A DNA stretch of 64,000 bases from Steroidobacteraceae bacterium (GTDB lineage Bacteria > Pseudomonadota > Gammaproteobacteria > Steroidobacterales > Steroidobacteraceae): the NCBI GenBank assembly GCA_019187185.1, contig JABAQU010000015.1, forward strand, positions 105,665 through 169,664, given 5' to 3'. Position numbers and translations under genes: made by a program. The notes under the pieces are model-generated. The model was not told the origin of the DNA and did not search any database. It worked only from the letters and a program-made list of their open reading frames with translations. Shown in pieces: positions 1-37,707 of this stretch. Numbering within the stretch: the stretch's first letter is position 1; every line of letters starts with the position of its first letter.

Positions 1-1120
1 CGCGTCCGGCAGGCCGCTCGCGGAGGGCGATATCGTGCGGCTCTTCGACGCACAGGGCCCGGACCTGCGTGCAGTGCTGCACGCCGCCGACCGGCTGCGC
101 GCCGAAAGCGTCGGCGAGGGCGTGTCGCACGTCGTCAATTGCAACATCAACTACACGAACATCTGCAAGCACCGCTGCGGTTTCTGCGCCTTCGCGAAAG
201 GCCGCAGCGCCGCGAGCCTGCGCGGGCCGGCCTACAACTACTCGCCGGACGACGTGGCGAGGCGCGCGGTCGAAGCATGGCAGCGTGGCGCCACGGAAGT
301 GTGCCTGCAGGGTGGCATCCACCCGGAGTACACCGGCCGCACCTACCTCGATATCGTGGCGGCGGTGAAGCGTGCCGTGCCGCAGATGCACGTGCATGCG
401 TTCTCGCCGCTCGAGGTCCGCCATGGCGCACAGTCCCTCGGGCTGTCGCTGCACGAATACCTGCGCGAGCTGCAGGCGACCGGCCTCTCGACGCTGCCCG
501 GCACGGCCGCCGAGATCCTCGACGACGAGATCCGGGCCGTGATCTGCCCGGACAAGCTCACCACCGCGGAGTGGCTCGAAGTGATCCGCGAGGCCCACAC
601 GATCGGCCTCCGGACGACCGCCACGATCATGTTCGGTCACGTCGAGCGTCCCGTGCATTGGGCGCGCCACCTGCTCAGGGTGAGGAGACTGCAGGAGGAG
701 ACGGGCGGCTTCACCGAATTCGTGCCGCTGCCCTACGTGCACATGGAGTCACCGATGTGGCGTCGCGGCCGCAGCCGCTCGGGGCCCACGCTGCGCGAGG
801 CAGTTCTGATGCATGCGATTGCGCGACTCGTTCTGCACCCGGTGATCCGCAGCATCCAGGCGTCGTGGGTCAAGATGGGTCCGAAGGGCGTCGCGCTCTG
901 CCTGCAGGCGGGCGCGAACGATCTCGGCGGCACACTGATGTACGAATCGATCACGCGGGCGGCGGGTGGCGTCAACGGGCAGGAATTCGATGCGACCGCC
1001 ATGGCGGAGCTCGTGGCGGGCATCGGCCGGCCGCTCTGGCAGCGCACCACACTGTACGGCCGCGTCGAGGCCGGCGCGATGGCACGGCAGGCCGCGCCAC
1101 GCGAGTGCGCGGCAGGTTAG
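1..1120 (+). CDS. cofH: FO synthase (7,8-didemethyl-8-hydroxy-5-deazariboflavin synthase) CofH subunit, or the CofH half of a fused FbiC; 5' end lies outside the window
   Basis: The frame is open from base 2, with no stop upstream of the ORF-track start at 35. Radical-SAM motif CKHRCGFC is preceded by NCNINYTNIC, and the C-terminal region carries GANDLGGTLMYESI. cofE, cofD and npdG in the same window favour CofH over the homologous MqnC/MqnE enzymes. Confidence 0.85.
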   Translation, partial: ASGRPLAEGDIVRLFDAQGPDLRAVLHAADRLRAESVGEGVSHVVNCNINYTNICKHRCGFCAFAKGRSAASLRGPAYNYSPDDVARRAVEAWQRGATEVCLQGGIHPEYTGRTYLDIVAAVKRAVPQMHVHAFSPLEVRHGAQSLGLSLHEYLRELQATGLSTLPGTAAEILDDEIRAVICPDKLTTAEWLEVIREAHTIGLRTTATIMFGHVERPVHWARHLLRVRRLQEETGGFTEFVPLPYVHMESPMWRRGRSRSGPTLREAVLMHAIARLVLHPVIRSIQASWVKMGPKGVALCLQAGANDLGGTLMYESITRAAGGVNGQEFDATAMAELVAGIGRPLWQRTTLYGRVEAGAMARQAAPRECAAG

Positions 1121-1160
1121 GACGGCACACTGGAGCCGGCAACGGCGCGAAGGCGGGAAC

Positions 1161-1682
1161 ATGACGATTTCGATCGGGGAACTCGAACGGCAGGTGCGCG
1201 TGCTGCGCGACATCGAGGAGATCAAGCGCCTCAAGCACGCGTATTTCCGCTGCATCGACACGGCCAACCTCGCGGAGCTCGCGCAGCTCACACACCCGGA
1301 GGTCACGACCAGCTACGTGGGCGGCAGCTATCGCATCGAGCTCAGGAACCGGGAAGAGTTCCTCGAGATGATCGGCAGTTCGTTCCACGCCGAGTGCGTC
1401 GCGCGACACAACGGCCACCACCCCGAGATCGAGGTGACGAGCGAAACGGAAGCGACCGGAACCTGGTACCTGCACGACGATTTCCTGAACCTGCGGGAAA
1501 TGATCCGGACCGAGGGCACGGCCATCTATCGGGACCGTTACCTGAAGGTGGATGGTCGCTGGGTGATCAGCCACCAGAGCTACGAGCGCATTTACGAGCG
1601 GGTCGAACCGATCACGACGGTGCCTACGCTCACCGTCAACACGCTGGCCCGCGTCGGGCGCCGGCTGCCGAAGAAGGGTTGA
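1161..1682 (+). CDS. SnoaL-like / NTF2-fold protein (SnoaL_4, BaiE-type fold)
   Basis: 173 aa from ATG 1161, with AAGGCGGGA just upstream. Pattern LRDIEEIKRLKHAYFRCIDT ... YRDRYLKVDGRWVISH is typical of SnoaL_4. The ORF-track start at 966 adds an Arg/Ala-rich stretch overlapping cofH and was not used. Confidence 0.75.
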   Translation: MTISIGELERQVRVLRDIEEIKRLKHAYFRCIDTANLAELAQLTHPEVTTSYVGGSYRIELRNREEFLEMIGSSFHAECVARHNGHHPEIEVTSETEATGTWYLHDDFLNLREMIRTEGTAIYRDRYLKVDGRWVISHQSYERIYERVEPITTVPTLTVNTLARVGRRLPKKG

Positions 1683-1691
1683 GGAGTACAG

Positions 1692-2573
1692 ATGCAATTC
1701 TGGCAATCATCGTTCCTGTGCGAGGGTGAACACCTGTTCGACATGGTGAAGCACTGCGAGTCCGCGGGGTTTCACGGCATTCTCGTGTCGGATCATCTCC
1801 TGCATCCCGAGAAGCAGGATTCGAAGTACCTGTACTCGACCGACCACAAGCCGCCGCAGTTCGAGGCGGACACCCTGTGGCCCGAGGCGTGGTCGTTCAT
1901 CGGCGCGCTCGCCGCCGTGACGAAGAAGCTGCACTTCTGCACGAACGTCTTCATCCTGCCGCTGCGCCACCCGCTCGAAGTCGCGAAGGCCACGGGCAGC
2001 GTCGGCTACTTCTCCGGGGGGCGCGTGCACCTCGGTGTCGGCGCCGGGTGGATGAAGGAAGAGTTCGAGATGCTGGGCATCGACTTCCACACCCGCGGCA
2101 AGCGCTACGACGAATGCATCGAGGTCATCCGCAAGGTGCAGACGGGAAAATTCGTGGAGCACCACGGGCAGTTCTTCAATTTCCCGCGCATCATCATGAC
2201 GCCGGCGCCGCCGGCACCGGTGCCGATCCTGATCGGTGGCACGAGCGACGTGGCGCTGCGTCGCGCGGCACGCATCGGCGACGGCTGGGTGTCGCCGGGA
2301 CAGCCGCTCGAGGATGAAATCGCCACGCTGAAGAAACTCGATGCGCTGCGTCGCGAGTACGGCACGCACGGCAAGCCGTTCAACTCGATCGTGGCGATCA
2401 TGCGGGGAGAGGACAAGCCGGTCACGCCGGCCGACATCCGTCGCCTGGAAGATGCGGGCGCCACCGGCTTCACGATCCTGCCGTTCCGGTTCACGATCGG
2501 CCGCGGCACGACGCTCGCGCAGAAACGGGCGGAAATCGACCGGGTCGCCACGGAGTTGATCGCGAAGGTCTGA
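1692..2573 (+). CDS. LLM-class (luciferase-like) oxidoreductase, probably F420-dependent
   Basis: 293 aa. Motifs GFHGILVSDHL, VHLGVGAGW, PILIGGTSDVALRRAARIGDGWVS. Paralogue of 8511..9377. Starts 9 nt after the preceding gene. Confidence 0.8.
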   Translation: MQFWQSSFLCEGEHLFDMVKHCESAGFHGILVSDHLLHPEKQDSKYLYSTDHKPPQFEADTLWPEAWSFIGALAAVTKKLHFCTNVFILPLRHPLEVAKATGSVGYFSGGRVHLGVGAGWMKEEFEMLGIDFHTRGKRYDECIEVIRKVQTGKFVEHHGQFFNFPRIIMTPAPPAPVPILIGGTSDVALRRAARIGDGWVSPGQPLEDEIATLKKLDALRREYGTHGKPFNSIVAIMRGEDKPVTPADIRRLEDAGATGFTILPFRFTIGRGTTLAQKRAEIDRVATELIAKV

Positions 2574-2597
2574 CTCGCGACACGCCGGGCGTGTCGC

Positions 2598-3644
2598 GTG
2601 CCGATGGAGTGGGGCTTCATGCAGGCGGCATCGGTGACCCGTGGAGCCATCGGCCTCGACGAGCTCGCCGCATGGGCGCACGCGCACGTTGCCGACGCGG
2701 CGTCGCCTCTCGCGGGCAGGCCTTACCTGCTGGTGCGCATCGGCGACTCCGGTCGCACGCCCGGTGCACAGGACGTGGCGGACATCGGTCGCTGGCTGCG
2801 TGCCCAACCGTGTCCCGTACTGGGAATCGCGGATGCGGGCGCACACGAGCTGTTGCAGCGCTCCTGCGACCTGGTGTCGGCGGACGAGGCCGCGCTCGAC
2901 GCTGCGATGGACAACATCCGTCACTCACCGCTCGCCGCCATGGTGCTCGTGCAGGTATTGCGTGTCACGGAGCAGATGCCGGTCGAGCACGCGCTCACGG
3001 TCGAGTCGCTCGCTTATGCCACGCTGCAGGGCGGCGAGGAGCATCGCCGCTGGCTGGCTGCACGCACACCCCGCAATCGGCCGGCCGCGCGCGACCCCGA
3101 CCCTGCCGTACTCGTGGAGAGGACCGGGAACGAAGTCGAGATCCGCTTGAATCGACCTTCGCGGCGCAACCCGCTGTCGATCGAAATGCGCGATGGATTG
3201 TGCGAGGCGCTGGAGCTCGTCGCCGCGGATCCGTCGATTGCGAGGGTGCGGATCGCCGGCAACGGTGACGCGTTCTGCTCGGGCGGGGACCTCGATGAGT
3301 TCGGGGCCACACCGGACACTGCGACAGCCCACGCCGTGCGCAGCCTGCGGTTGCCGGCGGCCACGCTGCAGAGGTGCGCGGATCGGGTCGAATTCCGCGT
3401 GCACGGTGCGTGCATCGGGGCCGGCATCGAATTGCCGGCCTTCGCGCCGACCGTTCGCGCGCGGCGCGATGCGTTCTTCCAGCTTCCCGAGATCCGCATG
3501 GGCCTGATTCCGGGCGCGGGTGGCTGCGCGAGCATTCCGCGCCGCATCGGACGGCAGCGTACGGCGCTCATGGCGCTGTCGGCCGCGCGCATCGATGCGC
3601 CGACGGCCCTCGCCTGGGGACTGATCGACGCGATCGAAGACTGA
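2598..3644 (+). CDS. crotonase-superfamily (enoyl-CoA hydratase/isomerase) protein with atypical domain order
   Basis: The C-terminal ~180 aa carry the crotonase core (EIRLNRPSRRNPLS, GDAFCSGGDL, HGACIGAGIEL, EIRMGLIPGAGG), and the protein ends right after GLIDAIED. The N-terminal ~165 aa resemble the C-terminal helices of a crotonase (RHSPLAAMVLVQVL...ESLAYATL). GTG start at 2598; ATG alternatives at 2604 and 2619. Confidence 0.75.
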   Translation: MPMEWGFMQAASVTRGAIGLDELAAWAHAHVADAASPLAGRPYLLVRIGDSGRTPGAQDVADIGRWLRAQPCPVLGIADAGAHELLQRSCDLVSADEAALDAAMDNIRHSPLAAMVLVQVLRVTEQMPVEHALTVESLAYATLQGGEEHRRWLAARTPRNRPAARDPDPAVLVERTGNEVEIRLNRPSRRNPLSIEMRDGLCEALELVAADPSIARVRIAGNGDAFCSGGDLDEFGATPDTATAHAVRSLRLPAATLQRCADRVEFRVHGACIGAGIELPAFAPTVRARRDAFFQLPEIRMGLIPGAGGCASIPRRIGRQRTALMALSAARIDAPTALAWGLIDAIED

Positions 3645-3690
3645 TGCCCGGCAACAGCGGCCGCTCTCTGCGAGTCGGGCTCGCTGCGGC

Positions 3691-5103
3691 TCAGCCGCGC
3701 TGCCAGATCAGCTGGCCGCCCCGAAGTGTCGCGATCACGCGTACGGCCGCAAGATCGCAACGTGCCGCAGACCATGGGCGGTCGAGCAGGCACAGATCCG
3801 CCGGCGTCCCCGGTGCGATGTGCATGGCCGCCGTGCCGGGCGCCAGCGGATCACCGCTGAAGAGTCCGAGCGCCTCTTCCGGCGTCAGGGCTTCGGCGCA
3901 GCCGAGCGTTTGGCCCGCCTGGGTGCGGCGATCCACTGCGGCCTGCATGGCGAGCCATGGATCGGGTTCGCCGAGCGGCGCATCGGTTCCTGCCGCGAGT
4001 GCAATGCCCGCGTCGAGGAAGGCGCGCCCGCGATAGAGCCACGGACAGTCGCGGGCGGCGACGTCCGCGAGGTAGGCGTCGCCGCGCTCGCGCACGAAAT
4101 TCGGCTGCGTCACGACCGTGACGCGCTGTTCGGCGATGAGCGCGAGCACTGCAGGCGGCGCGACGGAGGCATGCTCGATGCGATCACCGGGCCGGCTGCC
4201 GACCGCGGCGAGCGCCGCGAGCGCGAACACGATCTCCGCCTCCGTCACACAGTGCACGGCGATGGCGCGCCCGGCGTCGTGGCTGCCCGCGATCGCGGCG
4301 CACAGATCCTCGAGTGTGGGGAGCGAAGACTCGCGCAGGTAGATCTTGGTCGGGCCCCGCTTCACGGCCTCCGAGTCCCCGATGGCGTCGAGGCCGGCAT
4401 CGCCCATCACGCATACGCGCTGCAGGAGTTCCGCGCGCGCGGTCGCGTCGACGAAGTGGCGGAACTCCTGCCGCGAGTTGCGCGCGCTCGCGTCGGTGAT
4501 GCCGGTGACGCCGAAGCTCGCCAGCAGGGCGCTCGCGGCGTGCAATGCCGGTGGCGAGCCGCCGAGCCGTCGTCGCAGCCATGGATCGAGGTCGTAGAGC
4601 CTGCCGGTCGCGAGTGCGTCGTTTGCGCGCAGGGGCGCGAGCTCGTTGGCATCGGCGCCGGCAGCCAGCCGCTCGAGTCCGCGGGAATTCACGATCCAGA
4701 GACGACCGGAGCGATGCTGGATGCGCACCGGCCGATCGGCGACGATGCGATCGAGCCAGGCTCGATCGATGTCTCCGGCCACCGATTCGTGGTATGCAAT
4801 GCCGCGGATCCATGCGTCGTCGTTCGCCGGCAGGCTCGCTGCGTGTTCGCGCAGGCGGCACGCGAGTGCGTCCTCGGTCACGATCCCCGGGGGGCCGCAT
4901 CGCAGCGATGCGAGCGAGGTCGCGAGCGCGAGGACGTGCAGGTGATGGTCGTGCAGTCCGCGCACGAGCGCACCCCCGCGCGCATCGAGCACGGTTTCGC
5001 CGGACCGGGCAGGCAGGCGCTCGCCCAGCTGCGTCACGAATCCGCCGTCGATGCGCATGTCCGAGGTCCCGCACCGGCCGAGTTCCGCGTTGCGTATCAG
5101 CAT
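3691..5103 (-). CDS. metal-dependent amidohydrolase (Amidohydro_3 / YtcJ-like)
   Basis: 470 aa. N-terminal GLHDHHLH metal-binding HxH motif, AVHCV and GTDAP motifs. Overlaps the upstream gene by 7 nt. Confidence 0.8.
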   Translation of the reverse strand: MLIRNAELGRCGTSDMRIDGGFVTQLGERLPARSGETVLDARGGALVRGLHDHHLHVLALATSLASLRCGPPGIVTEDALACRLREHAASLPANDDAWIRGIAYHESVAGDIDRAWLDRIVADRPVRIQHRSGRLWIVNSRGLERLAAGADANELAPLRANDALATGRLYDLDPWLRRRLGGSPPALHAASALLASFGVTGITDASARNSRQEFRHFVDATARAELLQRVCVMGDAGLDAIGDSEAVKRGPTKIYLRESSLPTLEDLCAAIAGSHDAGRAIAVHCVTEAEIVFALAALAAVGSRPGDRIEHASVAPPAVLALIAEQRVTVVTQPNFVRERGDAYLADVAARDCPWLYRGRAFLDAGIALAAGTDAPLGEPDPWLAMQAAVDRRTQAGQTLGCAEALTPEEALGLFSGDPLAPGTAAMHIAPGTPADLCLLDRPWSAARCDLAAVRVIATLRGGQLIWQRG

Positions 5104-6524
5104 GCGCGACTCGGGCGGCGGAACACCGAGTCATTGTCGGCGCCGAGGGGGCACGCACGGCCGGTGACTGCACGGGCCGCCGGACGCACCGCATCGAGTC
5201 CGAGTGCGCGGGCCTCGGCAGTCCAGGCGCGCCAGCGCTCGCGCATCGCAGCCTCGGTACGAGGTTGGCCGAAGGCGATGCCGTGAGCCACGACATCGCG
5301 CAGCGTGATCTCGATGAGATGGCCGCCGCCGCCGCGATGGCTGGCAAGGCCGGCCAGCGCAGCGTGCATCCCGGCCAGCGGATCGGCGAGCGCATCGCCA
5401 CAGACGAGCGGCGCACCGGTCAGCTGCTGCATCAGCGAGGACAGGCCGGCAGCGACGGCGCCGTCGTCGCCGAAGGCTACCCAGTCGCTGCCCGGTTCGT
5501 CACGGCCGTAGCCGGTGAGGCTGACCCAGGTCAGCCCCGGGCGCCTTGCGACGCATTGCTCGGCGACGATTCCCCGCTCGCGCAGCGCGCGCGGTCGCGA
5601 GCCCTCGATCACGATGTCGGCCCAGTCGAGGAGGGCGTGCAGGCGCTCCATGCCGCGGCCATCGAACGGGATCGCCACGCTGCGCTTGCGGTGGTTCAGC
5701 AGGTCGAAGAAATCCGCAGGGCCTCTGCGGGCGCCGTCCGGCCGATCGGGACTTTCAACCTTGATGACCTCGCCGCCGAGTTGCTGGAGCAGGTGCGAGC
5801 ACAGAGGGCCCGCCCACAGCGACGACAGGTCGACGATGCGGGGCGGGCGCACGCGGGTCCCGATCGGCGCCGTCGGGCCGTGCCGTGCCGCGGAGAACCA
5901 GGGCCGCGGCACTGCTGCCGGCGGGGCTGATACGCACGCGGCGAGCCCCAGCAAACGTGCTCGCTCGACGAGCGGCTCGACGGCGCGCGCAGCGACTGTG
6001 CTGGCGAGCGCGTCCCACGATTCGATGCGACCGGACTCGAGCCACGCAGGCACATCCGCCCAGTCGGCGGCACGCGGCAGGCTGACGGCGAACCATCCAT
6101 CCGCGCCTGCGAGCAGGCGGCAGCTGCCCCCGGGCGACATGAGACCTTTTCGATGCAACCGCGCGATCGCAGCCCGCTCACCGAGCAGGGCGCGTCCTGC
6201 CGGCAGGCTGCCGACGGCATCGAGCGGTGCGAGGCAGGAGAGCGCCCGCACCGCGCCGTCCGCACAGCTCGCGAGCGGTGCAGGGCACATCTGTGCGGGG
6301 CCGTCGGCGAGCCCCGTCAGTGACATGAGGCCGCTCTGCGCCCAGGCGATCGCGGCGGACAGGTCCTCCGGGCCGGCGACCGTGGTCACGCGTGCACCGA
6401 GCGATTCGAGCAGTGCGTGCGCGTAATCGCTCGCGATGCCGTGCCCCGCGAGGCGGAGCGGCGGCAGCGCGGACAGGAGACCGGCGTCGGAAGCTGGGGG
6501 CACGTGCATCGGCTGATTGTTCAA
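5097..6524 (-). CDS. family III (CaiB/BaiF) CoA-transferase-like protein with ~200-aa N-terminal extension
   Basis: 475 aa. Canonical N-terminal CaiB motif appears only at residue ~225 (IVDLSSLWAGPLCSHLLQQLGGEVIKVESP), followed by LTGYGRDEP. The extension contains CaiB-like fragments (SGLMSLTGLADGP, ADGWFAVSL). Confidence 0.75.
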   Translation of the reverse strand: MNNQPMHVPPASDAGLLSALPPLRLAGHGIASDYAHALLESLGARVTTVAGPEDLSAAIAWAQSGLMSLTGLADGPAQMCPAPLASCADGAVRALSCLAPLDAVGSLPAGRALLGERAAIARLHRKGLMSPGGSCRLLAGADGWFAVSLPRAADWADVPAWLESGRIESWDALASTVAARAVEPLVERARLLGLAACVSAPPAAVPRPWFSAARHGPTAPIGTRVRPPRIVDLSSLWAGPLCSHLLQQLGGEVIKVESPDRPDGARRGPADFFDLLNHRKRSVAIPFDGRGMERLHALLDWADIVIEGSRPRALRERGIVAEQCVARRPGLTWVSLTGYGRDEPGSDWVAFGDDGAVAAGLSSLMQQLTGAPLVCGDALADPLAGMHAALAGLASHRGGGGHLIEITLRDVVAHGIAFGQPRTEAAMRERWRAWTAEARALGLDAVRPAARAVTGRACPLGADNDSVFRRPSRAC

Positions 6525-6680
6525 TGGATGCCCGGTCGCGACAAAGGGCGTAGTGTTCGGCTAGTCCAGGTGGACGATGATCCATGGCAGCCCGACGACG
6601 AGACTTGGACGCGCGTCCCGGGGGGGCATGCGGGCGCGTCGTCCGAATCAGCTTTGCCCGGAAATACGGCGGATATCGTC

Positions 6681-6992
6681 ATGAGGTTACTGAAGGCCGG
6701 TACGCGTGCCAAGTGCGCGGTGTGCGATACGGAAGTCATGGTCGTTCGCGCGGCGCCCGTGGAGGTGCAGGTCACCTGCGGCGGCGTCGAGCTGATCGCG
6801 ATGGATGGCGCGAAGGCGCCGGGTGCGCATGTGGATGCGGCGGCAGGCCAGTCTGCGCTCGTCGGCAAGCGCTACGTGAATGCGGCAGATGTCGTCGAAC
6901 TGCTGTGCACGAAAGGCGGCAAAGGGCAGCTGGCGGTGGGCGGCGAGCCGCTCTCGGTCAAGCAGGCAAAACCGCTGCCGTCTTCGGACTAG
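6681..6992 (+). CDS. small Cys-containing hypothetical protein, internally duplicated zinc-ribbon-like
   Basis: 103 aa from ATG 6681. Stop lies 3 nt before the acyl-CoA synthetase start. Contains CAVCDTEV...TCGG in the first half and GKRYV...LLCTKGGKG...KPLPSSD in the second. The longer 6417 start would add an Arg-rich leader. Confidence 0.5.
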   Translation: MRLLKAGTRAKCAVCDTEVMVVRAAPVEVQVTCGGVELIAMDGAKAPGAHVDAAAGQSALVGKRYVNAADVVELLCTKGGKGQLAVGGEPLSVKQAKPLPSSD

Positions 6993-6995
6993 TCC

Positions 6996-8504
6996 GTGAA
7001 CCTGGTCATGACGCTCGAGATGGCGGCCGAGTGCCATCCGCAGCGCATCGCCGTCACCTCGACCGACACTCGGCTCACGTGTGCGGAGCTGCTGGCGGCC
7101 GCGCGTGCCGCGGCGCTGGGCATTCGGGAAGCGGGCGTGAAATACGTCGGCATGCTCGACATCAACAGCCCGGCCGTACCGATTGCGCTGTTTGCCTCCG
7201 CGTATGCGGGTGTGCCCTACGTGCCGCTCAACTATCGGCTCACCCGGGGCGAGATCGAGGCGCTGCTCGCGCGCATCGCACCGGCGCTGCTCATCACCGA
7301 CGAGCCGGTGGTCGCGCCACTGACGCTTCCGCCCGGCATCACCGTGATGCTGCGCAGCGAGTTCCAGCGTCGCGCCCTGTCGGCTGCGCCCACGGAGATC
7401 TCCGCGCCGGGTGAACCGCGTGATGCCGCGATCCAGCTGTTCACGAGCGGGACGACGGGCAAGCCCAAGGCGGCCGTGCTGCGGCACGAAAACCTGATGT
7501 CCTACGTGCTCGGCACCGTGGAGTTCGCCTCCGCCGCCGAGGATGACGCGATCCTGATTTCCGTCCCCCCGTACCACATCGCGGGGATTTCGGCGGTCCT
7601 GAGCTCGATCTATGCCGGCCGGCGCATGGTGCAGCTGCCGAACTTCGATGCGGCCACGTGGCTGCAACTGTGCCGCGACCAGAAGGTCACCAATGCGTTC
7701 GTCGTGCCGACGATGCTGTCGAGGATCGTCGATCACCTGCAGCTGCACCCGGGAGACGCCCGCATGCCGTCACTGCGGGCAATCGCCTACGGCGGCGGCA
7801 AGATGCCGCTCGCGGTGATCGAACAGGCGATGCGGCTCCTCCCCGGCGTCGATTTCACCAATGCCTATGGCCTGACGGAGACGAGTTCGACGATCTGTCT
7901 CCTCGGGCCCGACGACCATCGCAGCGGCTTCGGAAGCGCGGATCCGCTGGTGCGTCGCCGCCTGTCGTCGGTCGGCAAGCCCGTGCCGACGATCGAGCTC
8001 GAGGTGCGCGGCGAGGCCGGCGAGGTGCTCGGACCCGGCCAGTCCGGCGAGGTCTTCGTGCGCGGCGGACAGGTCGCCGGCGAATACCTGGAGCAGGGCA
8101 GTCTGCTCGACACGGATGGCTGGTTCCCGACGCGCGATCGCGGCCACGTCGATGAATACGGCTACGTGTATCTCGAAGGCCGCGCCGACGACGTCATCGT
8201 CCGCGGCGGGGAGAACATCTCGCCGGGCGAAGTCGAGGATGTCCTGCTGGAGCACCCCGCGGTGTCCGATGCCGCCGTCGTCGCCGTGCCGGACCGGCAA
8301 TGGGGCGAGTCGGTCGGGGCCGTGATCGTGCTGCGCGAAAACGCGCAGGCCACGGATGCCGAGTTGCAGGACTGGGTCAGGCAGCGACTGCGTTCATCCC
8401 GTGTGCCGACCGCCATTCGCTATGTCGATCAATTGCCGTTCAACGAAATGGGCAAGGTGCTGCGACGCGTCCTGAAGCAGCAATTCGCCGATCTGAAATC
8501 GTAG
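6996..8504 (+). CDS. AMP-dependent acyl-CoA synthetase/ligase
   Basis: 502 aa. AMP-binding signature LFTSGTTGKPKAAVL, YGLTETSS, GWFPTRDRG, and a C-terminal MGKVLRR lysine motif. Confidence 0.9.
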   Translation: MNLVMTLEMAAECHPQRIAVTSTDTRLTCAELLAAARAAALGIREAGVKYVGMLDINSPAVPIALFASAYAGVPYVPLNYRLTRGEIEALLARIAPALLITDEPVVAPLTLPPGITVMLRSEFQRRALSAAPTEISAPGEPRDAAIQLFTSGTTGKPKAAVLRHENLMSYVLGTVEFASAAEDDAILISVPPYHIAGISAVLSSIYAGRRMVQLPNFDAATWLQLCRDQKVTNAFVVPTMLSRIVDHLQLHPGDARMPSLRAIAYGGGKMPLAVIEQAMRLLPGVDFTNAYGLTETSSTICLLGPDDHRSGFGSADPLVRRRLSSVGKPVPTIELEVRGEAGEVLGPGQSGEVFVRGGQVAGEYLEQGSLLDTDGWFPTRDRGHVDEYGYVYLEGRADDVIVRGGENISPGEVEDVLLEHPAVSDAAVVAVPDRQWGESVGAVIVLRENAQATDAELQDWVRQRLRSSRVPTAIRYVDQLPFNEMGKVLRRVLKQQFADLKS

Positions 8505-8510
8505 GTCGCC

Positions 8511-9377
8511 ATGAAGTTCGCACTGCTGCTCGGGTTCAGCCACCATCGTGATTTCCCGGCGCTCGCGCAGGCCGCCGAAGCAGCGGGCTTCAACTCGGTG
8601 TGCATCCCCGACAGCCTCTTTTACCCGAAGGCGACGGAATCGGAGTATCCGTACAACGATACGGAAACCATCCGCGGCTACATCAGCGCGACGGAATTCA
8701 TCGAACCGTTCATCGCGATGGCCACGATGGCGGCCGTCACTTCCCGCGTGCGCTTCTACCCGAGCGTGCTGAAGGTGCCGGTGCGCCAGCCGCTCGTGCT
8801 CGCCAAGCTGCTCACCTCGCTCGCCGTCGTCAGCGATGGCCGCGTCGCGCTCGGCGCGGGCTTGAGCCCGTGGAAGGAAGACTTCACGTACAACGGCGTG
8901 CGCTACGAGCGTCGCGGCGCGCTGATGGACGAGTGCATCCAGATCATCCGCGGTGTCATGTCGGGCGACTATTACGAACACCACACCGAGAACTACGATT
9001 TCGGACCGCTCAAGATGAACCCGGTGCCCGCGCGGCCCATCCCGATCCTGATCGGCGGACACGCGGCGCCGGCACTGAAACGTGCCGCGCGGGTCGGAGA
9101 CGGCTGGATATCCGCGAACAGCGACTACGAATCGCTGGCGAAGCTGATCGCCCAGCTGAACGGCTATCGGCGGGAGTACGGCACGCTGGACCGCAAGGAT
9201 TTCGAGATCCACGTGATCGATTCCAATGCGCAGACCGTCGCCGATTTCCAGCGTCTCGAGGCGCTCGGCGCCACCGAAGCAGCGCTCATCGCCTGGCCGC
9301 CGCAGGTACGCGATGGCCGCCAGCAGATCGAGGCGATCAAGCGCTTCGGCGACACGGTCGTCGCGAAGTTCCGCTAG
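8511..9377 (+). CDS. LLM-class (luciferase-like) oxidoreductase, probably F420-dependent
   Basis: 288 aa. GFNSVCIPDSL, VALGAGLSPW, PILIGGHAAPALKRAARVGDGWIS. Paralogue of 1692..2573. Starts 6 nt after the ligase gene. Confidence 0.85.
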   Translation: MKFALLLGFSHHRDFPALAQAAEAAGFNSVCIPDSLFYPKATESEYPYNDTETIRGYISATEFIEPFIAMATMAAVTSRVRFYPSVLKVPVRQPLVLAKLLTSLAVVSDGRVALGAGLSPWKEDFTYNGVRYERRGALMDECIQIIRGVMSGDYYEHHTENYDFGPLKMNPVPARPIPILIGGHAAPALKRAARVGDGWISANSDYESLAKLIAQLNGYRREYGTLDRKDFEIHVIDSNAQTVADFQRLEALGATEAALIAWPPQVRDGRQQIEAIKRFGDTVVAKFR

Positions 9378-9491
9378 ACCGGGTCGCGTTCGACACGCGC
9401 CGTCGATGGTGATGCTTCGACGCCGGAGCGCTCGAACGACTCGAAGAAATGGCCCTAACTAACTGTAAACGCTCGTATTGAGCATCTGCCC

Positions 9492-11912
9492 CTACCGGGC
9501 CGCGCCGACTTCCTTCAACCGCATCCACACGCGCTGCGCCGTGGCCGGCGTCTCGGTCATCTCGATGCCGAGCGGCGCGAGGGCGTCGTTGATCGCGCAG
9601 GTGATCGCCGCGGGCGTCGTGTGCATCGCCCCTTCGCCGCAGCCTTTCGCGCCGAGCGGCGTGACGGGCGAGGGGGTCACGATGTGGTCTCGCCGGGTGA
9701 TCGGCACCTCGTGGATCGACGGCATCAGGTAGTCGACGAATGTCGTGACGAGGGGATTGGCACCGTCGTCGTACACGTACTCTTCGAGGAGCGCCGCGCC
9801 GACGCCTTGTGCGACGGCTCCCTGGAGCTGCCCTTCGACGCTCGCGGGATTCAGCCGGGTGCCGCAGTCGTCGACGATGAAGTACTTCAGGATCGACGTG
9901 TGGCCCGTGCCGCGGTCGACCTCGACCATCACGACGTGGGTCGCCGTGGCCGCCGTCAGATAGCTGCGGCACCGACCTTCCTCGTCGGGCATGTTGCGCC
10001 CGGGGGCCGTCCACACCGAGGTGGCCGTCGGGTTCGGCTCCATGCCGGGCGGGAGCAGGTCGCTGCGGCCGAGCATCGTGCCCGCGACTTCGGCGACCGT
10101 CATGCCCATGGCCGGATTGGCCTTGACTCGCAACCGCCCGTCCATCAGTTCGATTGCATCGGGTGGCAGGCCGCCCATGATGTGGCCCACCACGCGCTTG
10201 AAGTCGGCCTCGAGCTTCTGGCAGGCGCCGAGCACGGCGCCCGTGATGGCGACGCCGACCCGGCTGCCGCCCTGGCCGAAGTGCGGCGGCGTGGCATCCG
10301 TCGCGGCGGTCGTGACCTTCACCGATGTGATGTCCACGCCGAAATAGTCGGCGGCGACCTGGGCCGCGACCGTGAACTGGCCCTGTCCCTGCAGGTTGAA
10401 GCCCACGACTATCGTGATGTTGCCGAGGACGTCGAAGGACACCCGCGCGCCCTCGGGCACGCCGACGCCCTGCACGCCGACCGTGGCGTAGGCATTCCAG
10501 TCGAAGACGCCCGGCTCGACCGTGTTCACGACGCTGATGCCGACGAGCCGGCCCTCGGCCCGCGCCGCCGCCTGCTCCTTGCGCAGGGCCGCGTAGTCCG
10601 CGAGCTTCAGCACTTTGTCGAGCACGGCTTCGTAGTCGCCGCTGTCGTACTCGTTGCCGCTCGGGATGGTGTACGGGAATTGCTCGGGCCGTATGTAGTT
10701 GCGGCGCCGGATGTCGGCCGGATCGAGCGCGAGCTTGCGCGCCGCCATGTCGACGAGGTTCTCGAGCACGAGAAAATGCGGCGGCGGACCGTAGCCGCGA
10801 TAGGGCGCGACCGGGGCACGGTTGGTCACGACGAGCGTCGTGTCGTAGCGGGCCGCCTCGATCCGGTAATTGCCGGTGAAGGCGGCGAGCGGCTTGGCGA
10901 CCGAGATCGTGCCGTAGGTTTCCGTCGTCGCGCCCTGGTCGTCGAGCAGCTTCACGTCGAAACCCGTGATCGTGCCGTCAGCCTTGAGCGCGAGTGACGC
11001 CTCGTAGCGACGGTCCCACGACTGGCTGCCGCCCGCGAGGAGACACTCCATGCGGTCCTCGATGTACTTGACCGGCAGGCCGCCCGCCTTGCGCGACAGG
11101 AGCGCGGCGATGTCGGTGCCGCGCGCGCCGCCCTTGCCGCCGAAGCCGCCACCCATGGGATGGCTCACGACTTTCACCTTGTTGGCGGGCAGGTTCAGCG
11201 AGAACGAGCGCGCGAGGCCCCAGAAGCCCGGCACCTGGTACGAACCGTGGCACACGAGACTGTTGTCGGTCAGGTCCCACTGGCACACGCAGCCGAAGGT
11301 CTCGGTGGGGTTCGCGCCGCAGCGGTTCCAGCGAAAGCTGGCGGTCACGACATGATCGGCCTCGCGAAAGACACGATCGACCTCGCCCCACGTGTAGACG
11401 CGCTTCTGGATGACGTTGGTCCCGTGCTCCTCGAACAGCACGGGCGCATCGGGCGCGATGGCGGCAGGCGCCGATGCGACCGCCGGGAGCACTTCGTAGT
11501 CGACATCGATCAGTTCGATCGCGTCCTCGGCGACGTGGCGGCTCGTCGCGGCCACGGCGGCCACGGGCTCGCCGACATAGATGACCTTGTCGATCGCAAT
11601 GCAATGCGTGCCCCAGCCCGGCGGGCTCGTGACATGCGCATTGGCCCAGCGCTTGACGTCATCCGGCGTGAGGACCGCAACGACTCCCTCGAGCGCTTCC
11701 GCCGCGCTCGCATCGACCTTGAGCACGCGCGCGTGCGCATGCGGGCTGCGCAGGATCGCGCAGTGCAGCATGCCCGGCAGCTGCAGGTTGTCGATGAAAG
11801 GCGCCGAGCCCGACACGAGCGCGGGGTCCTCGACGCGCCGGACTTCCTTGCCCACGTAGCGCACCGCGCTGGTCGGCAATTCTTCTGGCAGGCGGGGAAA
11901 CTCTCTGGCCAT
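9492..11912 (-). CDS. xanthine-dehydrogenase-family molybdopterin-binding large subunit (CoxL-like, not a bona fide CO dehydrogenase)
   Basis: 806 aa from ATG 11912, with GGAGGAG upstream. Starts MAREFPRLPEE...YVGKEVRRVEDPALVSG. Contains GGGFGGKG. The active-site loop reads APYRGYGPP rather than AYxCSFR. The ORF-track start at 12134 overlaps coxS-like and was rejected. Confidence 0.9.
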   Translation of the reverse strand: MAREFPRLPEELPTSAVRYVGKEVRRVEDPALVSGSAPFIDNLQLPGMLHCAILRSPHAHARVLKVDASAAEALEGVVAVLTPDDVKRWANAHVTSPPGWGTHCIAIDKVIYVGEPVAAVAATSRHVAEDAIELIDVDYEVLPAVASAPAAIAPDAPVLFEEHGTNVIQKRVYTWGEVDRVFREADHVVTASFRWNRCGANPTETFGCVCQWDLTDNSLVCHGSYQVPGFWGLARSFSLNLPANKVKVVSHPMGGGFGGKGGARGTDIAALLSRKAGGLPVKYIEDRMECLLAGGSQSWDRRYEASLALKADGTITGFDVKLLDDQGATTETYGTISVAKPLAAFTGNYRIEAARYDTTLVVTNRAPVAPYRGYGPPPHFLVLENLVDMAARKLALDPADIRRRNYIRPEQFPYTIPSGNEYDSGDYEAVLDKVLKLADYAALRKEQAAARAEGRLVGISVVNTVEPGVFDWNAYATVGVQGVGVPEGARVSFDVLGNITIVVGFNLQGQGQFTVAAQVAADYFGVDITSVKVTTAATDATPPHFGQGGSRVGVAITGAVLGACQKLEADFKRVVGHIMGGLPPDAIELMDGRLRVKANPAMGMTVAEVAGTMLGRSDLLPPGMEPNPTATSVWTAPGRNMPDEEGRCRSYLTAATATHVVMVEVDRGTGHTSILKYFIVDDCGTRLNPASVEGQLQGAVAQGVGAALLEEYVYDDGANPLVTTFVDYLMPSIHEVPITRRDHIVTPSPVTPLGAKGCGEGAMHTTPAAITCAINDALAPLGIEMTETPATAQRVWMRLKEVGAAR

Positions 11913-11944
11913 GCTGGATCTCCTCCGTCCGGGTTGGCGCCGAC

Positions 11945-12442
11945 TCAGGCGGGCCCTGATTGTTCGCGCAGGCGCCGGGCCGCGAGCCGCACCGACGCGA
12001 TGATGGTCTCGTACCCCGTGCAGCGGCACAGGTTCCCGCCCAGTGCTTCCTTGATGGCCTCGTCGTCGGGATCGGGGTTGTCGCGCAGCAGTTCGACCGT
12101 CGACATGATGAAGGCGGGGGTGCAGAACCCGCATTGCAGGCCGTGCGCGTCGACGAACGCCTGCTGCACCGGGTGCAGCTTGCCGGTCTCCGGGTCGCGC
12201 AGTCCTTCGATCGTCGTCACCTCCATGCCGTCGGCCTGCACGGCGAGCGTGAGGCAGGAGCGCGCCGGCAAGCCGTCGATGAGCACCGTGCAGACGCCGC
12301 AGATGCCGTGTTCGCAGCCGACGTGAGTGCCGCCCAGATGCAGGTCGTGACGCAGGAAGTCCGCGAGCGTGACGCGTGGCTCGACTTCCCGCTCGTAGAC
12401 GCGGCCGTTGACCGTCACCCGCGTGCGCTGTCTCGTTGTCAT
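11945..12442 (-). CDS. (2Fe-2S)-binding small subunit of the Mo hydroxylase (CoxS-like)
   Basis: 165 aa from ATG 12442. Both 2Fe-2S motifs are present: CEHGICGVCTV and CGFCTP...CRCTGY. Confidence 0.9.
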   Translation of the reverse strand: MTTRQRTRVTVNGRVYEREVEPRVTLADFLRHDLHLGGTHVGCEHGICGVCTVLIDGLPARSCLTLAVQADGMEVTTIEGLRDPETGKLHPVQQAFVDAHGLQCGFCTPAFIMSTVELLRDNPDPDDEAIKEALGGNLCRCTGYETIIASVRLAARRLREQSGPA

Positions 12443-12461
12443 GATCTCGTGCCTGCTCCTG

Positions 12462-13337
12462 TCACGCCGCGCGCGCCGCGGCTTCTGCGAGGCAGCGTTC
12501 CGTGAGTACCTTGACCAGCTGGCGGCGGTAGTCCGGCGTCGCGTGCACGTCGCCGAGCGGTTCGGCGACGGACTCGCCGGCCACGGCCGCCGCACGCGCA
12601 AAATTCTCCGTCGTCGCCGACTGGCCGTTGAGTGCCGCTTCGGCCGCCGGCAAGCGCACCGCGGTGGCATTGACGCCAAAGGCGCCGATGCGCACGTCTT
12701 CGCATCGGCCATTGGCCTTGCGCAGCGTGACGGCGATGCCCGCGAGCGCGAGGTCGCCGTGGCGTTTCGCGAATTCCTGGATCGCCCAGCCGGTGCCGGG
12801 CCGAAACGGTGGCAACCGCACCTCGACAAGTATCTCGGTCGCTTCGAGGCTGGTCGTCATGAAGGTCACGAAGAAATCGCTCGCCGCGATCTCGCGCACG
12901 CCGTTCGGCCCCTGCGCCCGCATCCGGATGTCCTGGACCAGCGCAACCGCCGGGTACTCGGCCGCCGGATCGGCGTGCGCGAACGAGCCGCCGACGGTGC
13001 CGCGATTGCGGATCTGGCGGTGGCCGATCAGCAGCGTTGCCGCGTGGAAGAGGGGTTGTTGTTCGCGGAGCAGCGGCGAGTCCTCCGCCGCGCGCTTGCT
13101 CGCCATCGAGCCGATCGCGATCGCCTCGCCCTCCGCGCGGATGTAATCGAGCGCCTCGATCTTGCCGAGATCGACCAGCACCTGCGGGCGTGCGATGCGC
13201 ATGTTGAGCATCGGCATCAGGCTCTGGCCACCCGCCAGCAGCTTCGTGTCGAGGCCCTCGCCCTCGAAGCGCTGCAGCAGCGCGATCGCCGATTCGACCG
13301 TCGGCGGCGCATGGTAATCAAAAGAGGCGGCTTTCAC
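12462..13337 (-). CDS. FAD-binding medium subunit of the Mo hydroxylase (CoxM-like)
   Basis: 291 aa from GTG 13337 (VKAASFDYHAP). LLAGGQSLMPMLNMR and RNRGTVGGS motifs. Gene order M-S-L is as in cox/xdh-type operons. Confidence 0.85.
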   Translation of the reverse strand: MKAASFDYHAPPTVESAIALLQRFEGEGLDTKLLAGGQSLMPMLNMRIARPQVLVDLGKIEALDYIRAEGEAIAIGSMASKRAAEDSPLLREQQPLFHAATLLIGHRQIRNRGTVGGSFAHADPAAEYPAVALVQDIRMRAQGPNGVREIAASDFFVTFMTTSLEATEILVEVRLPPFRPGTGWAIQEFAKRHGDLALAGIAVTLRKANGRCEDVRIGAFGVNATAVRLPAAEAALNGQSATTENFARAAAVAGESVAEPLGDVHATPDYRRQLVKVLTERCLAEAAARAA

Positions 13338-13506: not shown

Positions 13507-13564
13507 ATTTGCATTCAGCATCGGGGTCGGTGCGCGGTCAAATCCAGTTCGGCAGGTAACGTCC

Positions 13565-14662
13565 ATGAGCGGACCCTTACATACACCTCTGTGCGACAAG
13601 CTCGGCATCGAGTATCCCGTCGTTGCCTTCACGCATTGCAAGGACGTCGCGGTTGCCGTGATCAACGCGGGCGGCTTTTCCGTGCTCGGCGAAGCCCTGC
13701 ATTCGCCCGATCACATTGCTGCGGACATCAAATGGATCCGCGATCGGGTCGGCGGCAAACCGTTCGGCATCGATCTCGTGCTGCCGGCGTCGGTTCCGGA
13801 GGAGCGCACTGTCGAGCAGCTGCTCGCGGAGATTCCGCAGACGCACCGCGATTTCGAGCAGCAGATCAAGCGCAAGTACAACGTGCCCGACCCGAAGGAA
13901 GCGCCGAACATCCACATCTGGGGCGGCCTCGACCAGAAGCGCGCACTCGCGCAGGTGGAGGTCGTGTTCGACGAACGCGTCCCGGTATTCGCCTCGGGCC
14001 TCGGCTCGCCGGCATTCCTGCTGAAGCGCGCCCACCAGCTCGGCATGCAGGTGTGGGGGCTGGTCGGCAAGCCGCGCCAGGCGAAGAAGCAGATCGACGC
14101 GGGCACGGACGTGATCATTGCGCAGGGGTACGACGCGGCGGGTCACACGGGCAACATCGGCACGTTCTCGATCGTCCCGCAGATCGCCGACGCGGCACGC
14201 GCGGCCGGCGTTCCCGTGCTCGCGGCCGGTGGCGTGACCACGGGGCGGCATCTCGCGGCCGCGCTCGCGCTCGGCGCGGACGGCGTATGGACCGGTTCAT
14301 TGTGGCTGGCCTCGCGCGAGTCCGACGTCAATCTGCCGCTGAAGGAGCGGCTGCTCGAGGCCGAGACCGACGACACGGTGTACTCGGACTGCATCTCGGG
14401 CTACACGATGCGCACGACGCGCAGCCCCTGGCACGACGAATGGCTGAGCCCGGAAGCGCCGCCGGTCCTGAAGCCGCCGCTGCAGATGATGCTGTCGGCC
14501 AACTACATCCAGGGGTCGCTCGACTACCAGCGGAAGGACCTGATGACCGAAGCGGCGGGGCAGGGCATCCACTACGTGACCGAGATGAAGCCGGCGCGCC
14601 AGATCCTCTCCGATCTGGTCGATGAGGCACTCGATGTCTTCGAACGCTTCGCCTCCGCCTGA
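13565..14662 (+). CDS. nitronate monooxygenase / FabK-family FMN-dependent oxidoreductase
   Basis: 365 aa. LGIEYPVVAFTH, GIDLVLP, IIAQGYDAAGHTG, LAAGGVTTGRHLAAALALGADGVWTGS. Confidence 0.85.
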   Translation: MSGPLHTPLCDKLGIEYPVVAFTHCKDVAVAVINAGGFSVLGEALHSPDHIAADIKWIRDRVGGKPFGIDLVLPASVPEERTVEQLLAEIPQTHRDFEQQIKRKYNVPDPKEAPNIHIWGGLDQKRALAQVEVVFDERVPVFASGLGSPAFLLKRAHQLGMQVWGLVGKPRQAKKQIDAGTDVIIAQGYDAAGHTGNIGTFSIVPQIADAARAAGVPVLAAGGVTTGRHLAAALALGADGVWTGSLWLASRESDVNLPLKERLLEAETDDTVYSDCISGYTMRTTRSPWHDEWLSPEAPPVLKPPLQMMLSANYIQGSLDYQRKDLMTEAAGQGIHYVTEMKPARQILSDLVDEALDVFERFASA

Positions 14663-14933
14663 GCGGGCCGCACCGGATTTCCGGACCCGGGACGGCTTCG
14701 ACGCCGCAATGCAGGGTCGCCGGGCCGAGTGCGACGGTGGCAAGGCCATCGAGGGCACGCATTTCGCGGGTCGCCAGCAGTTCGCGGGCACCCTGACGGG
14801 GCAATATCGCGATTTCGGTGACTACCCGTGGCGCTGGTATCTCATGACGGATCTCACGCACAAGCCGGAAGGCTATGCGCACGAGGCTGTCTGGTGCGAC
14901 GCCGGCAGCCTGGATTTCGAAGGCAAAGAATGA
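14622..14933 (+). CDS. small hypothetical protein (74-103 aa depending on start)
   Basis: Third-codon positions are mostly G/C, as in neighbouring genes. Amino-acid composition is normal (DYPWRWYLMTDLTHKPEGYAHEAVWCD). Stop lies 4 nt before etfB. Alternative starts at 14634 and 14709. I recognise no family. Confidence 0.4.
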   Translation: MRHSMSSNASPPPERAAPDFRTRDGFDAAMQGRRAECDGGKAIEGTHFAGRQQFAGTLTGQYRDFGDYPWRWYLMTDLTHKPEGYAHEAVWCDAGSLDFEGKE

Positions 14934-14937
14934 ACCC

Positions 14938-15735: not shown

Positions 15736-15742
15736 GGCCCGC

Positions 15743-16363: not shown

Positions 16364-16372
16364 AGGGGCTTC

Positions 16373-17332: not shown

Positions 17333-17759
17333 CGGAGAAACGCCAGTGGTCGAATCCTCCCAACCGTGTGTACCGGGCCTGTTCGCCGCCGACGGTGGCG
17401 CGCGGGTCCTCGGGTCGCGCTGCACTGCCTGCGGCACACCGTATTTCCCGAAGGCGGCGAGTTGTCACAACCCGAAATGCCCGGGCTCGAAGATGGAGCC
17501 CTGCGAATTCGGCGGCCGGGGCAAGGTGTGGAGCTATTCGGTCGCGGATTTCCCGCCGCCGCCGCCCCACAAGCACGACAAGCCGTTCAAGCCGTATGCG
17601 ATCGCCGTGGTCGATCTCGACAGCGGCCTGCGGCTCGTCGGGCAGATGGTCGATCCGCCGTCGGCCATGAGCGTCGGCGCGGCGGTCGAACTGGTCGTCG
17701 ACACGCTCTACCACGAGGAAGGCAAGGCCTTCACGACGTGGAAATTCAAGCTGGCCTGA
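17322..17759 (+). CDS. DUF35 OB-fold / zinc-ribbon protein (thiolase partner)
   Basis: Zinc-ribbon Cys pairs CTACGTPYFP...CHNPKC, followed by the OB fold (KVWSYSV...YAIAVVDLDSGLRLVG). An alternative GTG at 17346 has GGAG 8 nt upstream and would give 137 aa. Confidence 0.85.
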   Translation: MVADGETPVVESSQPCVPGLFAADGGARVLGSRCTACGTPYFPKAASCHNPKCPGSKMEPCEFGGRGKVWSYSVADFPPPPPHKHDKPFKPYAIAVVDLDSGLRLVGQMVDPPSAMSVGAAVELVVDTLYHEEGKAFTTWKFKLA

Positions 17760-17779
17760 GCCGCGGGGAGTAAGCAGTC

Positions 17780-18973: not shown

Positions 18974-19023
18974 TCGCCCCACGCGCCGGGAACGGCGCGG
19001 CGGCGCTCGCTGGGGCAACGATC

Positions 19024-37704: not shown

Positions 37705-37707
37705 GCG

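Follow-up and report, generated by a model that had tools for sequence, protein, structure and literature searches.

What does the deazaflavin cofactor F420 do in a Gram-negative bacterium? The reason why Proteobacteria make it is listed as an open question in a 2021 review (PMC8498797). We analysed a stretch of 64,000 nucleotides (nt) from a Steroidobacteraceae genome (G000:C3:105665-169664, where C3 is the contig; hereafter the window), which opens with an F420 biosynthesis gene, a CofC-CofG-CofH fusion, followed by genes for a SnoaL-like protein, a luciferase-like oxidoreductase (LLM1) and a crotonase-fold protein (ECHx). A reading made without database searches (the sequence-only reading) had named CofH, SnoaL, LLM and crotonase genes here, as well as cofE, cofD, npdG, a second LLM gene and three TonB-dependent receptor genes, and all of them lie where it placed them. 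Its claim that an F420 biosynthesis gene heads a catabolic operon is borne out by the trio that follows at short gaps. Its further suggestion, that F420 is made for this particular pathway, stands in part: co-location and phyletic pattern speak for it, but no further than for this lineage and for the main, not the sole, use of the cofactor. As the best explanation overall, we consider it probable that the F420 genes serve a steroid-type catabolic island and that F420 is made mainly for that pathway.

The CofC-CofG-CofH fusion and the operon that it heads

Families were called with the curated cut-offs of NCBIfam hidden Markov models (HMMs), given below as score versus cut-off, and Pfam scans covered the window and C3:1-105 kb. 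The window edge cuts the first gene, whose 3' part (1..1120, +; stop codon at 1118..1120) encodes a CofH domain by its HMM scores: the frame at 2..1120, which has no stop back to the first base, carries a radical-SAM domain and a CofH/MqnC C-terminal domain and reaches 488.7 bits on the CofH model TIGR03551 (cut-off 374.1). Upstream of the window, the frame stays open for another 1.95 kb with no internal stop, and the complete open reading frame (G000:C3:103806-106784), with a GTG start 1.86 kb upstream of the window, encodes 992 amino acids. In the whole protein, the CofH match at residues 628-975 (541.3 versus 374.1) is preceded by a CofC/FbiD domain at residues 5-193 (TIGR03552, 164.2 versus 105, spanning profile positions 2-192 of 196) and a CofG domain at residues 246-569 (TIGR03550, 476.1 versus 213.35), and the CofG-CofH part also passes the FbiC (CofGH) model NF006687 (1103.9 versus 1018). 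Both radical-SAM motifs are intact, with CKHRCGFC at residue 675 in CofH (window nt 164..187) and a second CxxxCxxC motif, CRNVCRYC, at residue 259 in CofG. The sequence-only reading had called this gene CofH/FbiC-type rather than MqnC/MqnE, which the HMM scores uphold, and had looked to the upstream sequence for cofG, which proves to be fused to cofH, with cofC fused as well. A futalosine-pathway (MqnC/MqnE) reading was rejected, the window part scoring 299.7 versus 428.1 on MqnC and 277.7 versus 434.6 on MqnE; the whole fusion is likewise below both sister-family cut-offs (354.2 versus 428.1 and 327.9 versus 434.6).

The fusion is not an assembly artefact, since it recurs free of stops in three genomes (G020, G087 and G090, at 89%, 80% and 78% identity) of our family sample, which comprised 121 Steroidobacteraceae genomes from 40 genera. 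When the 80 best public loci were checked in a frame-aware manner, an in-frame cofC-fbiC fusion was present in 13, from Steroidobacteraceae, Halieaceae, Xanthobacteraceae and others, and cofC was separate but adjacent in 38, the usual order being cofE-cofD-cofC-fbiC. The 2021 F420 review is silent on such a fusion (PMC8498797). Judged by its domains, this is a predicted trifunctional gene that joins FO synthase to the guanylyltransferase activating the linker.

Downstream of the fusion, the SnoaL, LLM1 and ECHx genes follow at gaps of 40, 9 and 24 nt; the sequence-only reading had given 41 nt for the first and the same values for the other two. The gene 3' of ECHx is convergent, so the unit ends at ECHx. 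The trio is conserved as a unit in five other genomes (G020, G087, G090, G120 and G043) and on two public contigs (L122 and L123), whose LLM1 orthologues are 64-66% identical. On the two contigs, the order is DUF2889 (-), KstD-like (-), AMP-ligase (-), then SDR, MaoC, LuxR, SnoaL, LLM and ECHx, then CoA-transferase (-), and lastly AMP-ligase and LLM2. The flanks are found here in the same order at 52-80% identity, with the fusion sitting between the LuxR gene (C3:102489-103664) and SnoaL. This inserted form, the fusion with the same downstream trio, is common to G020, G087 and G090; L122, L123 and G120 have a fusion-free LuxR-SnoaL-LLM-ECHx arrangement, and the trio stands apart from fbiC in both G120 and G043. 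Because relatives have LuxR-SnoaL-LLM-ECHx without the fusion, we conclude that cofC-fbiC was inserted into an existing, conserved catabolic operon.

The first member of the trio (1161..1682, +) is a SnoaL_4/NTF2-fold protein (PF13577, 1e-20) resembling BaiE, of the bile-acid 7α-dehydratase family. Among proteins of solved structure, only three BaiE entries match it strongly (over residues 5-147, at 3e-27 to 1.5e-26), and its Tyr28, Asp33 and His83 align with the Tyr, Asp and His of BaiE, which we take to be the catalytic residues. The protein is a BaiE-like steroid 7α-dehydratase homologue, with dehydration as its predicted function. LLM1 (1692..2573, +) scores 207 bits versus 166.9 on TIGR03619 ('F420_Rv2161c'), a family of F420-type luciferase-like oxidoreductases.

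ECHx (2598..3644, +) has a crotonase fold with a rearranged domain order. Its core, with both catalytic Glu positions (GAGIELP and LPEIR), lies at residues ~171-346, and the protein stops directly after it, the C-terminal helical segment being missing. The N-terminal 170 residues, for which BLASTP and Pfam gave nothing significant, carry motifs resembling the crotonase C-terminal helix (SPLAAMVLVQVLR…ESLAYATLQGG…RRWL); a degenerate 'PVLGIADAGA…CD' strand is also found there. ECHx appears, from this arrangement, to be circularly permuted or to derive from a truncated tandem; a structure model built from a 4-sequence alignment has a predicted local distance difference test (pLDDT) score of 55, too poor to confirm permutation. 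The family spans Steroidobacteraceae, other Gammaproteobacteria and Denitratisoma at 50-76% identity, with the homologue of Denitratisoma oestradiolicum at 52%. The stretch that separates the LLM1 stop from the annotated start of ECHx (2574..2597) is filled by a perfect 8-bp hairpin, CGACACGC-CGG-GCGTGTCG, and, judging from homologues, the true ECHx start may be 6-21 nt further downstream.

Further along, an acyl-CoA (AMP-forming) ligase gene (6996..8504, +) is paired with LLM2 (8511..9377, +), a second TIGR03619 F420-type LLM (176.8 versus 166.9). The pair is conserved on L123, at 78% and 73% identity, and LLM2 has a 66% homologue in D. oestradiolicum that adjoins two SnoaL genes. Between the trio and this pair, a family III CoA-transferase homologue (5097..6524, -) covers only Pfam profile positions 5-204 of 366, after a 240-residue N-terminal extension; its full-length paralogues in the window and the flanking sequence number at least seven.

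The remaining F420 genes lie deeper in the window. Their products are NpdG (Fno), an NADPH-dependent F420 reductase (40068..40745, -; TIGR01915, 193.8 versus 149.8), CofE, a single-domain F420-0:γ-glutamyl ligase that lacks the FbiB C-terminal domain (56070..56837, +; 275.8 versus 180.65), and CofD, a 2-phospho-L-lactate transferase homologue (56834..57781, +; 298.6 versus 257.45). A genome-wide search for the FbiB C-terminal nitroreductase-like domain, TIGR03553, yielded nothing at E <= 0.01. With the fusion, cofD, cofE and npdG, the genome encodes every known step for making and reducing F420, as predicted from these families. The F420 set is distributed over three catabolic operons that lie 40-55 kb apart. 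A gene for a FadH/BaiCD-like enoate reductase of the old yellow enzyme-Fe/S-FAD type (53935..56073, +; 404 bits on the BaiCD family, under the cut-off of 825) overlaps the cofE start with its stop; since cofE and cofD are coupled to this gene, two further cofactor genes are embedded in a catabolic unit. The overlaps have the form GTGA, by which cofE and cofD are translationally coupled to the reductase gene (53935..57781). The npdG gene heads a minus-strand operon (36955..40745), in which it is joined by genes for an amidohydrolase_2 of the SRAH family, a CoA-transferase of family III and a DUF2889 protein. A paralogue of the latter flanks the trio neighbourhood at C3:99151-99951, and DUF2889 genes are also found on L122 and L123 and in D. 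oestradiolicum.

A steroid-type supercluster around the operon

By Pfam and NCBIfam scans, the surroundings of the operon (C3:7-165 kb) form a single supercluster of ~160 kb. It holds pairs of acyl-CoA dehydrogenases (ACADs), MaoC/DUF35/SCP-x-type thiolase sets (ChsH/Ltp2-like), an IpdA-like CoA-transferase together with NMO-type reductases resembling IpdC (the IpdAB/IpdC-like genes), a KstD-like flavoenzyme, FadH/BaiCD-like enzymes, at least seven family III CoA-transferases, an electron transfer flavoprotein (ETF) with a CCG/Fe-S partner, LuxR regulators and at least six TonB-dependent receptors, three of which lie in the window (45682..48555; 49901..52243, -; 59135..62191). The evidence points to catabolism of steroids or bile acids, predicted to be of the oxygen-independent 2,3-seco type. 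Rieske (KshA-type) oxygenases number five in the genome and none on contig C3.

Next to LLM2, the window encodes a three-subunit molybdenum (Mo) enzyme of the xanthine-oxidase family (9492..13337, -), which is 1-testosterone dehydrogenase (AtcABC/1-TDH)-like and consists of FAD (12462..13337, -), 2Fe-2S (11945..12442, -) and Mo (9492..11912, -) subunits. It is followed on the plus strand (13508..20967) by genes for an NMO-type reductase, ETF-β, a CoxG-like protein, ETF-α, a DUF35 protein, an SCP-x-type thiolase and a CCG/Fe-S oxidoreductase. This part of the window (9.5-21 kb) is syntenic with 2.150-2.180 Mb of D. oestradiolicum, which degrades steroids by the 2,3-seco route, at 62-87% identity (NMO 87%, thiolase-like 83%, 2Fe-2S 76%, DUF35 72%, Mo 70%, ETF 63%, CCG-FeS 62%). 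Against the syntenic enzyme, the Mo enzyme subunits are 62% (FAD), 76% (2Fe-2S) and 70-73% (Mo) identical, and the Mo-subunit homologues of D. oestradiolicum are at 73% and 66%. The same D. oestradiolicum region also contains the ECHx homologue (52%), an LLM (79% to the LLM at C3:26096) and an FDOR-A (54%). In that region (L114/L115), an inverted duplication has doubled the steroid-type block, giving two copies each of NMO, ETF-β, 2Fe-2S subunit, ETF-α, DUF35 and thiolase-like genes whose percentage identities to the window proteins are identical. The CoxG-like (SRPBCC) gene separates ETF-β and ETF-α here (14848..17332), and the ETF genes are also apart in D. oestradiolicum.

A paralogous Mo subunit (C3:8121-10505; the paralogues are 58% identical to each other) is followed directly by an amidohydrolase_2 gene (C3:10524-11513), an adjacency also found in G020, G035 and G043. 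Amidohydrolase_2 (SRAH) genes beside 1-testosterone dehydrogenase genes were described in a 2025 paper on ring-A hydrolases (PMC11780191). Here, adjacent genes at C3:6947-13676 encode an LLM, the Mo subunit, the amidohydrolase_2, a KstD-like protein that reaches 589 bits on the 3-ketosteroid-Δ1-dehydrogenase model, below its cut-off of 789, and an FDOR-B. The amidohydrolase_2 of the npdG operon (38942..39922, -) is a second SRAH-family, ring-A-hydrolase-like candidate, with 78% identical proteins in Sterolibacterium metagenome-assembled genomes; no F420 genes adjoin the amidohydrolase homologue there. For Sterolibacterium denitrificans, a figure legend in a 2019 review (PMC6678751) names cofC, cofD and cofE next to ACS3, a 'steroid Δ-isomerase', an enoyl-CoA hydratase, an SDR and ACADs.

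Some related genes lie on other contigs. Near the end of C8 (G000:C8:160795-162128) lies a second pair of FAD and 2Fe-2S subunits (62% and 76%), belonging to the paralogous Mo subunit, which is itself close to the start of C3; the C8 end and the C3 start may adjoin in the real chromosome. Contig C14 (34596-42333) carries an additional KstD-like gene (44%) together with a FadH-like gene (61%) and one for an enoyl-CoA hydratase; Rieske proteins are on C6 and C20, and a separate, possibly oxygen-dependent, steroid cluster may exist.

F420-type enzymes, EmtD and the phyletic pattern

Both LLMs of the window fall in an F420-type subfamily, in line with the sequence-only reading: they exceed the TIGR03619 cut-off, and all FMN-type LLM models score far below theirs. 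The genome encodes six above-cut-off TIGR03619 LLMs, four of them at C3:7-115 kb; the paralogues beyond LLM1 and LLM2 score 205.3, 185.2, 249.8 and 220 (cut-off 166.9), and one on C8 falls below at 135.2. The only FDOR-A in the genome (TIGR00026, PF04075; C3:91305-91829) and the only FDOR-B above cut-off (TIGR03618; C3:13215-13676) lie on the same contig. Thus, six of the eight above-cut-off F420-type enzymes (four LLMs, FDOR-A and FDOR-B) are within the supercluster.

Among cultured bacteria, LLM1 has its nearest homologues in Denitratisoma sp. DHT3 (65%) and D. oestradiolicum (60-61%), where the homologue is the first gene of an LLM–hypothetical–corrinoid protein–MtmB-like array; it is EmtD of emtABCD, the estrogen methyltransferase cluster of Denitratisoma (10.1101/714501; PMC7448270). 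LLM1 and EmtD are reciprocal best matches (60-65%), with the next paralogues reaching 44-45% here and 39-40% in D. oestradiolicum. A role for EmtD in corrinoid reactivation has only been suggested, by Wang et al. (10.1101/714501) and Jacoby et al. (PMC7448270). The genome studied here has no homologue of EmtA (MtmB-like) or EmtC, and its best EmtB match is at 26%, on contig C1. That an EmtD-type LLM occurs in a genome without EmtA and EmtC argues against a methyltransferase-specific role for such proteins. An estrogen-methylation reading of this genome was rejected, EmtA and EmtC being absent. The AlphaFold model of LLM1 is a TIM barrel with a pLDDT of 93.

In the family sample, fbiC is present in 46 of the 121 genomes and in 23 of the 40 genera, and it is missing from two of the four other sampled congeners. 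Many other Proteobacteria carry it too. F420 genes are therefore frequent in the family, if patchily distributed, which qualifies the statement of the sequence-only reading that F420 has been reported in only a few Proteobacteria. LLM1-like matches occur in 14 family genomes, all of which are fbiC-positive against the background of 46/121 (P = 3e-7, phylogeny ignored). Close orthologues of the Mo subunit (at least 57% identity) and of the two amidohydrolases (at least 73%) are found in 8 of the 121 genomes, again all fbiC-positive; when the genome under study is left out, the co-occurrence is 7/7 (P = 8e-4, phylogeny likewise ignored). The two fbiC-less congeners also lack the trio, the Mo enzyme and the amidohydrolases, and, in the family as a whole, only genomes with fbiC carry the trio, the Mo enzyme and ring-A-hydrolase-like genes. 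D. oestradiolicum has three fbiC copies in addition to cofC, cofD, cofE and npdG. The copies (G121, LR778301.1) are at 1208-1211, 1297-1300 and 3877-3880 kb; by setting, one is ~20 kb from the emt cluster, one is beside npdG, and one is in a cofE-cofD-cofC-fbiC operon by LLMs and SDRs.

The role proposed for F420, its rivals and known systems

We propose that F420 would act mainly as a hydride carrier of a steroid or bile-acid pathway. Fno would equilibrate F420H2 with NADPH, and the FDORs and LLMs would transfer hydride on steroid rings or on CoA-ester fragments. Candidate steps are the reduction of androsta-1,4-diene-3,17-dione (ADD) to a 1-ene-3-one, the reduction of the Δ4,6-dienone that the BaiE-like dehydratase would form, and hydroxy/oxo interconversions. 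Transcribed together with the trio, the fusion would link the supply of cofactor to pathway induction. ADD reduction (to 1-AD) and the ring-B steps are still unassigned in the 2,3-seco pathway (PMC11780191). A more specific proposal, which we put forward tentatively and would not yet expect to hold, is that F420H2 is the physiological hydride carrier of this pathway in Beta- and Gammaproteobacteria, that FDOR and LLM enzymes perform the unassigned reductive steps (ADD to androst-1-ene-3,17-dione, or in ring B), and that EmtD is an F420-dependent steroid oxidoreductase rather than a corrinoid reactivator.

Several points weigh against F420 serving mainly the steroid-type pathway, and the rival explanations draw on some of them. 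The phyletic statistics ignore shared ancestry and co-transfer of the island. A consensus scan of 1..9500 found no promoter or terminator above shuffled expectation, so the short gaps are the sole basis for the operon structure. To our knowledge, the characterised F420-dependent LLMs are mostly alcohol dehydrogenases or imine/methylene reductases, and none acts on a steroid. F420 genes are far wider in the family than the steroid-type module (46/121 versus 8/121 genomes), which indicates that F420 has other uses in relatives, and two above-cut-off TIGR03619 LLMs lie outside the island (C3:239 kb and C2:2 kb). This wide distribution and these outlying LLMs, together with the self-contained cofE-cofD-cofC-fbiC operon of most Proteobacteria, would suit an F420 that is general-purpose, its genes having reached the island merely through joint acquisition or rearrangement, with no island enzyme being F420-specific. 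We regard this as unlikely, since biosynthesis is spread across three catabolic operons (one with the fusion and the trio, one with npdG and the amidohydrolase_2 and CoA-transferase genes, and one with cofE-cofD and the FadH-like gene), most of the F420-type enzymes are gathered in one supercluster, and the same enzyme families recur in the syntenic Denitratisoma region.

The Mo enzyme and the amidohydrolases are only putative counterparts of AtcABC/1-TDH and SRAH, and the characterised SRAH, WP_154715975.1, is not among the listed cluster members of the 78%-identical Sterolibacterium proteins. Moreover, most island genes come from broad families (ACAD, enoyl-CoA hydratase, family III CoA-transferase, SDR, thiolase), and the BaiCD and KstD models score under their curated cut-offs. 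The island could on these grounds degrade other alicyclic, isoprenoid or branched-chain carboxylate CoA esters, with its steroid-like matches reflecting shared families. We find such a substrate quite improbable in view of the BaiE-family match (3e-27) with its triad aligned, the EmtD orthology, the synteny at 62-87% identity with a proven anaerobic steroid degrader, the Mo enzyme followed directly by an amidohydrolase_2 as described for 1-TDH and SRAH (PMC11780191), and the family itself being Steroidobacteraceae. In a Foldseek search with the LLM1 model, F420-dependent and FMN-dependent LLM structures match equally well, and the best match by sequence in the PDB, 2b81, has no assigned cofactor. 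The fold thus does not tell the two cofactors apart, which would be compatible with both LLMs being FMN-dependent, or with FO alone being useful (for example as a photolyase chromophore) and the adjacency to fbiC being unrelated to F420 catalysis. The chance of this seems slight: cofC, cofD, cofE and npdG are all intact, which means that the pathway extends past FO, both LLMs are above the F420-type cut-off while the FMN-type models fall far short, and LLM1-like genes occur in fbiC-positive genomes only. It is least to be expected that LLM1 reductively reactivates a corrinoid methyltransferase rather than acting on steroids, as the suggestion made for EmtD (10.1101/714501; PMC7448270) would have it, because homologues of EmtA and EmtC are missing from the genome and EmtB has just a distant match on another contig, and because, both here and in L122, L123, G020, G087, G090 and G120, the neighbours of this LLM are a homologue of a steroid dehydratase and a hydratase in place of corrinoid proteins.

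Should the more specific proposal hold, F420 would gain its first defined catabolic role in Proteobacteria. The locus ties together two open questions, the role of F420 in Proteobacteria (PMC8498797) and the unassigned steps of anaerobic steroid degradation (PMC11780191). The tie is a conserved one: a synthesis gene is inserted in a steroid-type operon, F420-type reductases lie by ring-A enzymes, and an EmtD orthologue stands downstream of F420 synthesis genes. F420 genes in Proteobacteria are already known, and it is the arrangement that is new, for a known pathway in a known phylum. No discussion of F420 as a cofactor of the 2,3-seco steroid pathway was found in the searchable literature, where the link between F420 and 2,3-seco-type steroid catabolism, like the EmtD connection, appears to be undescribed. 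The proposal is thus a specific physiological hypothesis, not stated in that literature, for a job of F420 in Gram-negative bacteria, and it is directly testable because the same families are present in degraders that can be cultured and are in part genetically tractable (Denitratisoma, Sterolibacterium, Steroidobacter denitrificans and Aromatoleum evansii).

Compared with the mycobacterial pathway of FbiC, FbiD, FbiA and FbiB (PMC6450877), the FO synthase, guanylyltransferase and transferase are homologous, whereas the genome here has no FbiB C-terminal nitroreductase-like domain, the dehydro-F420-0 reductase. Its linker substrate may be 2-phospholactate, PEP or 3-phosphoglycerate, and the F420 variant would follow from it. 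The proteobacterial F420 operons of Paracoccus denitrificans and Oligotropha carboxidovorans, so far as the review relays Ney et al. 2017 (PMC8498797), have the same set as found here, namely an FbiC-type FO synthase, CofC, CofD, a single-domain CofE and Fno. Most relatives keep a compact cofE-cofD-cofC-fbiC order, while here cofC is fused, the set is split and the fusion lies in a steroid-type operon. With the 2,3-seco clusters (PMC6678751, PMC11780191), the supercluster shares a three-subunit Mo enzyme, an adjoining amidohydrolase_2, ETF, CoA-ligases and CoA-transferases, ACADs and hydratases; in Sterolibacterium, too, F420 genes are found beside steroid genes (PMC6678751). The 7α-hydroxysteroid dehydratases BaiE (Clostridium scindens group) and Hsh2 have the SnoaL_4 fold, and their Tyr, Asp and His are aligned in the SnoaL protein described here, which is proteobacterial and has an F420-type LLM as its partner in place of the flavoenzymes BaiCD/BaiH. 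Lastly, the emtABCD clusters of Denitratisoma sp. DHT3 and D. oestradiolicum contain an EmtD that is 65% and 60% identical to LLM1, and both organisms carry F420 biosynthesis genes, but LLM1 stands without EmtA, EmtB and EmtC partners and has a BaiE-like dehydratase and a hydratase as its neighbours.

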